Assembly: GCF_024223415.1 (NCBI RefSeq)
Contig: NZ_CP100500.1
Direction: 5' to 3' (one strand)
DNA: 64,000 nucleotides
Origin: Escherichia coli
GTDB lineage: Bacteria > Pseudomonadota > Gammaproteobacteria > Enterobacterales > Enterobacteriaceae
Positions 9,001-12,000 of the stretch are shown piece by piece (position 1 is the first letter of the stretch; each line of letters starts with the position of its first letter). Made by a program: the position numbers.

Positions 9001-12000
9001 CAGCAATATGTGCTGATGACCATCGGCGACGGCCTGGTGGCGCAGATCCCTTCCCTGCTGCTCTCCACGGCGGCGGCGATTATCGTCACCCGCGTCAGCG
9101 ACAACGGCGATATCGCCCATGACGTGCGCCACCAGCTGCTGGCAAGCCCGTCGGTGCTCTACACCGCCACCGGGATCATGTTCGTGCTGGCGGTGGTGCC
9201 GGGGATGCCGCACCTGCCGTTTTTGCTGTTCAGCGCCCTGCTTGGCTTTACCGGCTGGCGGATGAGCAAACGCCCGCAGGCGGCGGAGGCGGAAGAGAAA
9301 AGCCTCGAAACGCTGACCCGCACCATCACTGAAACCAGCGAGCAACAGGTCAGTTGGGAAACCATTCCGCTGATCGAGCCCATCAGCTTAAGCCTCGGCT
9401 ACAAACTGGTGGCGCTGGTGGACAAAGCGCAGGGCAACCCGCTCACCCAGCGTATTCGCGGCGTACGGCAGGTGATATCCGACGGTAACGGCGTGCTGCT
9501 GCCGGAGATCCGCATTCGGGAAAACTTCCGCCTTAAGCCGAGCCAGTACGCCATTTTCATCAACGGTATTAAGGCTGATGAAGCGGATATTCCGGCGGAT
9601 AAACTGATGGCCCTGCCCTCCAGCGAAACCTACGGCGAGATTGACGGCGTGCTGGGGAACGACCCGGCGTACGGGATGCCGGTCACCTGGATCCAGCCCG
9701 CGCAGAAAGCGAAAGCGCTGAATATGGGGTATCAGGTGATCGACAGCGCCAGCGTGATTGCCACCCATGTGAACAAGATTGTCCGCAGCTATATTCCTGA
9801 TTTGTTTAACTATGATGACATCACGCAGTTGCATAACCGTTTGTCGTCGATGGCACCGCGCCTGGCGGAGGATTTAAGCGCGGCGCTCAATTACAGCCAA
9901 TTGCTGAAAGTGTACCGGGCGCTGCTGACCGAAGGCGTTTCCCTGCGCGATATCGTCACCATCGCCACCGTGCTGGTCGCAAGTAGCACGGTGACCAAAG
10001 ATCATATTCTGCTGGCAGCTGATGTGCGCCTGGCACTGCGGCGCAGCATTACCCATCCGTTCGTTCGCAAGCAGGAGCTGACGGTGTATACGCTGAATAA
10101 TGAGCTGGAAAATCTGCTGACCAACGTGGTGAATCAGGCGCAACAGGGCGGGAAAGTGATGCTCGACAGCGTGCCGGTCGACCCGAATATGCTCAACCAG
10201 TTCCAGAACACGATGCCGCAGGTAAAAGAGCAGATGAAAGCGGCGGGGAAAGACCCGGTGCTGCTGGTGCCGCCTCAGCTGCGCCCTTTGCTGGCGCGTT
10301 ATGCAAGGTTGTTTGCGCCGGGGCTGCATGTGCTGTCGTATAACGAAGTGCCGGATGAGCTGGAGTTGAAGATTATGGGGGCGTTGATGTAGGCATGATA
10401 AGACGCGTCAGCGTCGCATCAGGCATCGGTGCATAACCGCCGGATGCGGCGTGAACGCCTTATCCGGCCTACCGTTCAGGCGCAGGTTTGTAGGCATTAT
10501 AAGATGTGCCAGCGTCGCATCAGGCATCCGCGCACAATTGCCGGATGCGGCACAAGTTTGTAGGCATGATAAGACGCGCTAGCGTCGCATCAGGCATCTG
10601 CGCACAATTATAAAATGATACGCTCCCCAGCACTCAAATCCGTTATGTCTCCCGCCCAATTGATGGGATATAACCCTCGCGCGACATCGCGATGGAACGT
10701 TGAGAATGGCCAATCACTCACTTGCTTTACCCAGCCATGTTTTACTGGATTTATATAAATATAATCAACATGATGGCGATAGTTTTTGGTATTGCGGATG
10801 GTGTGCTCCCAAAAACGTGGTTGCCAGATATTTTTCAATCCACAAGCATGGGTGAACTGCTTTTTAATCTCCCGCCAGCGAGAGGAAAAATCATCATCGC
10901 TTTCGGGTAATGTCCATATGCAATGCATATGCTCCGGCAAAACTACCCAGGCATTAATTTCAAAAGGTCTGGCTCGCTTAACTTTAATAATGGCGTTACG
11001 GAGCGTCTGGTACTGGGTAGTCAAAAGTTGGCTTCGACGATTCCGTAAATTCACCGTGAAAAACCAGGTTCCCCCTTTGATGTAATACCGACGATATTCA
11101 GACATGGCGACTCCTTTTTCTCAACGGTAAGAAGAAAAGGAAAGGTCGGCAATGAGGTGATGGAATAACGGGAAAGCGGCTCGCAAAAACGCACAAATTT
11201 GTAGGCATGATAAGACGCGCCAGCGTCGCATCAGGCATCGGCGCACAACTGCCGGATGCGGCGTAAACGCCTTATCCGGCCTACCGTTCAGGCACAAATT
11301 TGTAGGCATGATAAGACGCGTCAGCGTCGCATCAGGCATCTGCGCACCACCGCCGGATGCGGCGTAAACGCCTTATCCGGCCTACAAAATCGTCTCTTCC
11401 GTCAAGATCCGCCGCGCGCCTAAAAAATGATCCTGCCAGAAAGGTTCAGCTAACCGACTTACCCGAATGGTTTCCCCGGTGCGCGGTGACTCAATAAACT
11501 GACCGTCGCCCAGATACACCCCCATATGGTCGGCAATCTCGCGGCTGTGGATATGGAAAAACAGCAAATCTCCCCGGCGCAGGTCGTTATTCGCCACAAT
11601 CGTTGCCCGATGGTAGTGATACATCTCATTAGCCGTACGCGGGAGCTTCGCCTCGAGGATCTTGTTGTAGGCATAAAAAACCAACCCGCTACAGTCGAAG
11701 CCTTTATCGGGCCGCGTGCCGCCCCAGACGTAAGGCTTGCCAAGCTGCTGCTCCAGGCGGTGAATCGCCACTTCGGTGATGTTATGCAGGTGATCGCTGC
11801 TTAAAAAGTGGTTGTTTTCCGCCAGCGCCTGCCAGCGTCTGTCACTCGCCTTGAGCGGCGCAGGAAACCATTCTGGATGCTGTTTTATCTGCTCCCGGTT
11901 GTGCTGGCGTAGCGCCCTTCTTCTTTCGGCATTGCCTTCCACAATATAGCTGGCCTGTTTTTTCAGATGGGTTTGGTACTGTTTTAATAAACGCGCACGG

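Follow-up and report, generated by a model that had tools for sequence, protein, structure and literature searches.

This analysis concerns rayT, the gene for a REP-associated tyrosine transposase (REP, repetitive extragenic palindrome), and the arrays of REP units around it in a stretch of 64,000 nucleotides from Escherichia coli (RefSeq assembly GCF_024223415.1, contig NZ_CP100500.1), referred to below as the window. The segment 10200-11600 (1.4 kb) is 100% identical to E. coli AR_0085, and gene names were taken from that record; the gene order is lafU' - lfhA' - rayT - yafL - dinJ - yafQ - dpaA - yafJ - gmhA(lpcA) - fadE. The locus is, with very high confidence, the E. coli 'REPtron Ec', that is, a single-copy, vertically inherited and domesticated rayT at a fixed site between lfhA' and yafL, flanked by bacterial interspersed mosaic elements (BIMEs) of the BIME-2 type. 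The gene and the REP units, inverted REPs being abbreviated iREPs, are the following.

10608-11105, minus strand: rayT (tnpA_REP, yafM), intact, encoding a 165-amino-acid HUH/Y1 REP-associated tyrosine transposase.

11106-11200, minus strand: unique 5' region of rayT, with a Shine-Dalgarno sequence (AGGAG) 7 nt before the ATG and the presumed promoter.

10389-10424, plus strand: z2 REP L1, GTAG plus an imperfect palindrome, of the 'GCATGAT' subclass; DNA fold of -9.7 kcal/mol, z -4.1.

10439-10472, minus strand: y REP of the left array, with 0 edits relative to the y consensus; fold of -12.2 kcal/mol.

10490-10525, plus strand: decayed z2 REP of the left array, with 4 edits and three stem substitutions; fold lost, z = 0.0.

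10541-10553, plus strand: stub of a y iREP, 13 nt (GCCGGATGCGGC...), recognised by unit alignment.

10560-10595, plus strand: z2 REP L3, which ends 12 nt short of the rayT stop codon.

11201-11284: BIME R1, composed of a z2 REP (11201-11236, plus strand), a 14-nt linker and a y REP (11251-11284, minus strand), recognised by census, fold and the Rfam naRNA4 model (82 bits).

11302-11385: BIME R2, composed of a z2 REP (11302-11337, plus strand), a linker and a y REP (11352-11385, minus strand), recognised by census, fold and the same Rfam model (80.5 bits).

14580-14714: third array, in the gmhA(lpcA)-yafJ intergenic region, with a decayed y REP (14580-14613, minus strand), a z2 REP (14631-14666, plus strand) and a y REP (14681-14714, minus strand).

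The REP census consisted of a semi-global edit-distance scan in which the window was compared with the consensus sequences of three E. coli REP classes, y, z1 and z2. Three arrays, designated left (10389-10595), right (11201-11385) and third (14580-14714), hold all 11 full-length REPs of the 64 kb, and the first two adjoin the rayT open reading frame (ORF), the left one 12 nt beyond its 3' end and the right one 95 nt before its 5' end. An earlier note on this DNA had described rayT as bracketed by REP arrays, which is correct: arrays lie on both sides, their coordinates were right within a few bases, and both of the units quoted are present as written. The related array that it placed between yafJ and gmhA was also found there, as a z2/y BIME-2 array. 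Its description of one same REP unit on both sides of the gene holds for the BIME-2 type, which is shared, but not for the unit, which consists of two REP classes, z2 and y, in opposite orientation.

All three arrays combine z2 and y REPs of opposite orientation, joined by short linkers and repeated in tandem, which are the features that define BIME-2 (PMC3333891). Their period is 101 bp, with linkers of 14 nt and 17 nt, and the orientation of z2 and y alternates between plus and minus. The GTAG tetranucleotide is kept in all 11 full-length units, nine of which fold into the same structure: GTAG, a 7-bp lower stem, an AA/GC two-base bulge, an upper stem and a 4-nt loop. As single-stranded DNA, the intact units reach -9.7 kcal/mol (z2) and -12.2 kcal/mol (y), with z values of about -3 to -4, while stem substitutions have abolished the fold of the remaining two (z2 at 10490 and y at 14580). 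A z2+y pair can also form one extended, imperfect hairpin (-21 to -23 kcal/mol), a REPIN-like conformation. The z2 units of this window read GCATGAT, versus GCCTGAT in the z2 consensus used, a change that adds an A.G mismatch in the lower stem.

The earlier note had proposed that its reading would fail if the repeat units proved unrelated to each other on alignment. This alignment was carried out, and the REP units superimpose column by column, so that the reading stands. The idea that the repeats represent chance or low-complexity similarity is refuted: besides this alignment, the motif GTAGGCMKGATAAG, allowing at most 1 mismatch, has 10 matches in the 64 kb versus 0.04 expected (0 of 100 shuffles reach 10), all 10 sit inside the three arrays, the folds are conserved, and a curated Rfam model is matched. 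The census found no REP in positions 1-10388 or 14715-64000 of the window (~60 kb), where the density of REP loci in sampled parts of the AR_0085 genome would predict about 3.6 of them, so that the surroundings of the arrays are mildly REP-poor. In the RefSeq record of K-12, no REP features are annotated for the corresponding region.

The ORF shares about 94% identity with PDB 4ER8, the structure of E. coli K-12 TnpA_REP with a REP hairpin (E = 1.2e-111, residues 1-164), and scores 174.9 bits, for a cutoff of 80, with the NCBIfam model NF047646 (equivalog, REP-associated tyrosine transposase). All seven residues assigned to the active site in the crystal structure (PMC3479197), namely H59-M60-H61, Y115, N119, H123 and E161, occur at the same positions. 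The ratio of nonsynonymous to synonymous divergence (dN/dS) versus other E. coli alleles is 0.04-0.19, and therefore the gene is under purifying selection. As for its 5' region (11106-11200), the alignment distinguishes two haplotypes among strains, and a consensus scan of this segment found no sigma-70 site.

Pfam at its default threshold gave no match for the ORF. The Y1_Tnp model (PF01797) scores it at 17.6 bits, under the gathering threshold of 23, and the IS200 model of NCBIfam (NF033573) at 13.3 bits, under the cutoff of 55. Because the Y1_Tnp score lies under its threshold, the rayT product is not an IS200/IS605 TnpA in the strict sense, and this agrees with RayT as a separate clade. 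These scores also bear on the proposal that rayT and its flanking REPs form an autonomous insertion sequence (IS) of the IS200/IS605 type. The architecture is similar, with a Y1 transposase gene between subterminal hairpins, and weak Y1_Tnp and IS200 similarity is detectable; RayT has in common with this family (for instance, IS608) HUH/Y1 chemistry on single-stranded DNA and hairpin recognition, besides the position of the transposase gene between palindromes. However, the Pfam and IS200 scores fall short of the family cut-offs, there is one copy per genome and always at the same site, only 9 of 3,588 places of rayT are on plasmids, and the literature treats the gene as domesticated and immobile. 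Unlike the IS200/IS605 transposases, RayT moreover cleaves both strands, and does so with low specificity (C|T only). The proposal is thus highly improbable and can be regarded as effectively refuted.

Among the known systems close to this arrangement are the REPIN/RAYT systems (Nunvar 2010, PMC2817692; Bertels & Rainey 2011, PMC3116915), which also show a single-copy RAYT gene, inverted REP doublets and a long-hairpin fold. In contrast to REPINs, the E. coli doublet pairs REPs of two classes (y and z2) and not two copies of one REP. E. coli RayT is included in group 2, which is characterized by long bulged REPs.

The REPtron of E. coli has been described in detail (Ton-Hoang 2012, PMC3333891; Messing 2012, PMC3479197, PDB 4ER8; Corneloup 2021, PMC8266576). 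Publications from 2010 to 2021 cover the locus, the structure of the protein, the REP classes, the chemistry in vitro, the variation among strains, the replacement by hicAB and the precise deletion of rayT; the system is already known. In the published survey, tnpA_REP is a single-copy gene located between yafL and fhiA in 74 of 110 E. coli/Shigella genomes, with invariably a single BIME at its 5' side and a variable number at its 3' side; B1 strains have hicAB in its place, and some B2 strains show a precise deletion of the gene with the BIMEs kept (PMC3333891). The present analysis covered 5,426 complete E. coli genomes and found rayT in 3,574 of them (66%); the median was one copy per genome and the highest number 2 places, which matches the two-thirds and the single locus of that survey. 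Every sampled record that carries the gene has it between flhA/lfhA' and yafL. Among the strains sampled, hicAB-type loci are devoid of the REPtron BIMEs, and rayT-less loci retain six REPs between lfhA' and yafL. A REPtron is recognised by a rayT flanked on both sides by REP/BIME classes that are abundant in the genome, and this is the case here, as y and z2 recur elsewhere in AR_0085 and across Escherichia.

Compared with the REPtron of K-12 MG1655 (rayT = yafM, b0228), the window has the same chromosomal locus (lfhA'/fhiA - rayT - yafL) and gene orientation, the same y and z2 classes, the 101-bp BIME-2 period, the active-site residues, the GTAG, the AA/GC bulge and the C|T cleavage motifs. 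BIME R2 is homologous to the '5' BIME' of K-12, on which both the crystal structure and the cleavage assays are based; the crystallised DNA is the K-12 homologue of the y REP adjoining the yafL stop codon (PMC3479197), and in the K-12 REPtron the BIMEs of both sides, 5' and 3', have served as cleavage substrates in vitro. The differences concern the protein and the composition of the arrays. RayT carries ten substitutions relative to K-12 (T34M, N37H, A45D, S69G, T102A, N108D, N149D, I154V, L157F and L165S), with 35 nucleotide differences in the gene; the last three substitutions lie near E161 and the inhibitory C-terminal tail. On the 5' side of rayT there are two BIMEs here versus one in K-12, and on the 3' side the order is z2-y-z2*-y'-z2 versus y-z2-y-z2.

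The chemistry of the K-12 protein has been established in vitro. It binds REPs only as single-stranded DNA, does not bind the iREP, and requires for binding both the 5' GTAG tetranucleotide and the AA/GC bulge of the stem. Cleavage takes place at C|T in the adjacent inverted REP or in the linker, on either strand, with a sequence specificity so low that it is limited to the C|T dinucleotide. The published motifs are TGCC|TGAT, in the z iREP, and GCC|TAC, within CTAC (PMC3333891), and both are legible in the iREPs of the window. The reaction depends on Y115 and on a metal held by the HUH motif, and proceeds through a covalent 5'-phosphotyrosine intermediate, which may then be joined to a different 3'-OH in a strand transfer. 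Binding and cleavage of REP DNA have been demonstrated for the K-12 orthologue only.

In vivo, RayT would act in trans on BIMEs chromosome-wide, so that BIME units could be excised, inserted or amplified, possibly by a rolling-circle-like process. Such an activity would account for the different numbers of copies that these arrays have from strain to strain. The earlier note had suggested that RayT mobilises its cognate REP class, and had advised classifying the units and comparing their copy number with other E. coli genomes. The cognate arrangement and the REPtron locus stand; mobilisation has been shown only in vitro, as cleavage and strand transfer, and its in vivo step is inferred. The units could be classified as z2 and y, and the comparison revealed that strains differ in copy number at each of the three arrays, by whole units of 101 bp.

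In some strains, the REPs of the REPtron locus have themselves changed. The z2 REPs show GTCG or ATAG instead of GTAG in two B2-type strains, EC958 (4002-4136 and 4743-4777 of its record) and the rayT-less 14EC020 (4190-4423), replacements that should abolish recognition by RayT. In strain 118UI, the IS3-family element ISEc31 (record 2693-3906) lies inside the BIME array 3' of rayT, which is split into two blocks.

Several observations weigh against the explanation given here, among them the sub-threshold Y1_Tnp score mentioned above. In vivo, E. coli RayT has not been shown to transpose or amplify BIMEs. Strains that carry rayT and strains that lack it have similar numbers of REPs (PMC3333891), and circular BIME DNA did not turn up in mobilome sequencing; both results speak against a strong role of RayT today. 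The arrays contain neither a predicted intrinsic terminator nor a predicted strong promoter. Finally, two rearrangements look like slippage or homologous recombination and not like RayT chemistry. The first is in the left array, where only the 13-nt y stub remains of one REP: according to the unit alignment, the other 31 bp of the unit were deleted, leaving a spacing of 70 bp versus the usual 101 bp, and the ends of the deletion are GGC microhomologies, which looks like slippage. The second is the collapse of the third array in O157:H7. There, a single y REP is left (record 8207-8240), whose 5' half is that of the decayed y and whose 3' half is that of the intact y, a chimera as expected from recombination between two y units.

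It is quite possible, if short of probable, that copy-number differences arise by replication slippage or by unequal homologous recombination between 101-bp tandem units instead of by RayT catalysis. Such processes would produce differences of whole 101-bp units, as observed, the GGC ends of the 31-bp deletion do not correspond to a C|T site, and the O157:H7 chimera is what y/y recombination predicts. They do not account so well for the right array, since the linker CGTTCAG of the extra 5' BIME cannot come from local duplication of a single-BIME ancestor, and the two 5' units differ at 4-5 positions.

The third array was considered separately. Two candidate links to the gene were rejected. One was that the 'GCATGAT' z2 units form a local, rayT-proximal family: an exact-match scan of species-representative genomes shows that they are dispersed in Escherichia; one E. 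coli genome has 20 of them, spread over 8 contigs, and others occur in E. albertii, E. whittamii and cryptic clades. In 150 kb sampled from AR_0085, neither of two z2 copies belongs to this subclass. The other was that the nearness of the array to rayT is meaningful. The same 150 kb contain 9 REP loci, about 1 per 17 kb, and the probability of a REP locus lying within +/-3.3 kb is about 0.33. Furthermore, the third array was found in the K-12, B2 and hicAB-type strains sampled, including strains without rayT. Because its z2 subclass is dispersed, because it is present in rayT-less strains and because a REP locus this near is expected by chance about one time in three, nothing links the third array to rayT in particular, and it is an ordinary dispersed BIME-2 locus outside the REPtron.

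The genes on either side of rayT, which define the context of the arrays, are as follows.

8674-10392, plus strand: lfhA' (= fhiA), a lateral-flagellar flhA pseudogene without its N-terminus (Pfam FHIPEP, 2.5e-189; incomplete FlhA in AR_0085).

11382-12131, minus strand: yafL, encoding an NlpC/P60 peptidase (Pfam NLPC_P60, 3.9e-33), the upstream neighbour of rayT on the same strand.

The left array thus lies between the convergent lfhA' (plus) and rayT (minus), the right array between the co-directional yafL and rayT, and the third between the co-directional gmhA and yafJ. The earlier note had proposed the arrays as possible transcriptional insulators between convergent and divergent genes, which is inaccurate as regards the latter, as the arrays occupy one convergent and two tandem pairs and no divergent one. 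The stop codon of lfhA' (10390-10392) is the TAG of the GTAG of the first z2 REP, and that of yafL (11382-11384, minus strand) is the TAG of the GTAG of a y REP. Both genes consequently end inside a REP, a configuration that has been reported to stall ribosomes; this stalling was described for REPs located no more than 15 nt from the stop codon (Liang et al. 2015, according to a paper that cites it).

Some other features of the surroundings also deserve mention. Directly after dinB comes yafP (window ~5800-7900), and the toxin-antitoxin pair yafN-yafO, which adjoins dinB in K-12, is absent in this strain. Positions 48001-56000 show a G+C content of 0.427, versus 0.50-0.58 elsewhere in the window, and this segment may have been acquired horizontally.

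The Rfam model RF02564 (naRNA4) recognises four z2+y pairs of the window at 73-82 bits, for a gathering score of 59.5.

10392-10469, minus strand: naRNA4 match in the left array (73.1 bits).

11204-11281, minus strand: naRNA4 match in BIME R1 (82 bits).

11305-11382, minus strand: naRNA4 match in BIME R2 (80.5 bits).

14634-14711, minus strand: naRNA4 match in the third array (80.2 bits).

The minus strand is the one transcribed from yafL, gmhA and rayT, so the naRNA4-sense strand of the arrays would be transcribed by read-through from these genes. What the model detects is evidently the BIME-2 unit in general and not one particular small RNA gene. naRNA4 derives from REP325, a 12-unit Z2/Y BIME-2 array located between yjdM and yjdN, and its role in chromosome compaction is disputed; a 2026 preprint describes REP325 as a partial Rho-dependent terminator and a stabiliser of the upstream mRNA, with no nucleoid compaction. 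The arrays of the window share with REP325 the BIME-2 sequence family and a 3' untranslated region (3'-UTR) context between tandem genes, but they comprise 3-5 units versus 12, and they are known here from their sequence.

Given that the BIME-2 type is the same as that of REP325, it is plausible by analogy that the arrays, which lie in 3' untranslated positions (lfhA'/rayT, yafL and gmhA), attenuate read-through and protect the upstream mRNA. The scan for intrinsic (Rho-independent) terminators predicted 0 sites in 10200-11600, and it is owing to this and to the lack of a predicted strong promoter in the arrays that the regulatory role is argued from analogy.

A further step would be to regard the arrays as being today essentially 3'-UTR regulatory elements of the host (partial Rho-dependent terminators, exonuclease barriers and ribosome stallers), to which RayT would no longer contribute, with the adjacency of rayT as a historical relic. 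The similar REP numbers in strains with and without the gene point in this direction, and so does the persistence of the third array and the flanking BIMEs in rayT-less strains. All three arrays are located just past stop codons, two of which fall inside GTAG, the position for which stalling has been reported, and REP325 provides a precedent for a dual terminator and stabiliser role. In addition, rayT of O157:H7 (record 4338-4835) has an internal stop codon, W99*, which counts against a strong present-day role of the gene. Nevertheless, the rayT of this window is intact, with a dN/dS of about 0.1 and all the catalytic residues kept, the gene is retained at one locus in 66% of genomes, and the K-12 protein acts in vitro on exactly these BIMEs. 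This reading appears rather unlikely, and it is in any case compatible with the REPtron explanation and not exclusive of it.

Within the REPtron, what distinguishes the window is the right array. Two BIMEs are present on the 5' side of rayT, versus one in the five other strains aligned. To gauge the length of this array across genomes, a short query was used, which avoids BLAST pieces from the other array. The two-BIME sequence is matched end to end at 100% by only 7 of the 5,426 complete genomes, those of AR_0085, SCU-316, O78 strain 3, GPEC1446, KV7, NCTC10444 and NCTC9112; among the other matches listed with an unambiguous span, this is 244 bp versus 345 bp, which corresponds to one BIME. 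The extra unit, R1, carries the inter-BIME linker CGTTCAG, which the single-BIME alleles lack. This linker, together with the 4-5 positions at which R1 and R2 differ, makes a simple recent tandem duplication unlikely.

The rayT allele itself is also rare: an identity of at least 99% is reached by only 7 records, versus 3,241 records with 90-95%. Its nucleotide identity with the alleles of K-12, O157, EC958 and 118UI is 93-95%, with a synonymous divergence (dS) of 0.14-0.30, and of 0.22-0.30 when only K-12, EC958 and 118UI are considered. The rayT of Escherichia sp. E1V33, a member of a cryptic clade, is as far from that of K-12 as the window rayT is (dS about 0.28). The flanking lfhA' and yafL are 94-98% identical among strains. 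In contrast, for two genes about 2-4 kb away the identity is mostly higher: for dpaA it is 98-99% throughout the seven strains compared, and for gmhA 97.6-99.3% in six of these strains and 95.7% in O157:H7.

One interpretation of these data is that AR_0085 and the other six genomes preserve a natural RayT-type BIME insertion beside rayT, with the extra unit paired with a divergent rayT haplotype. This is considered improbable at present, but it would have two consequences. E. coli rayT would consist of old allelic lineages, either maintained separately or imported from other species, each with its own flanking-BIME architecture, and the rule of a single 5' BIME would have exceptions usable to reconstruct an in vivo RayT event. 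More generally, the two-BIME 5' allele and the high synonymous divergence of rayT represent small extensions of the known picture. The locus carries little weight as a discovery and constitutes a clean positive control, in which a REPtron was recognised from raw sequence; the rare two-BIME allele and the divergence of its rayT could help to catch RayT-mediated BIME dynamics in natural populations.

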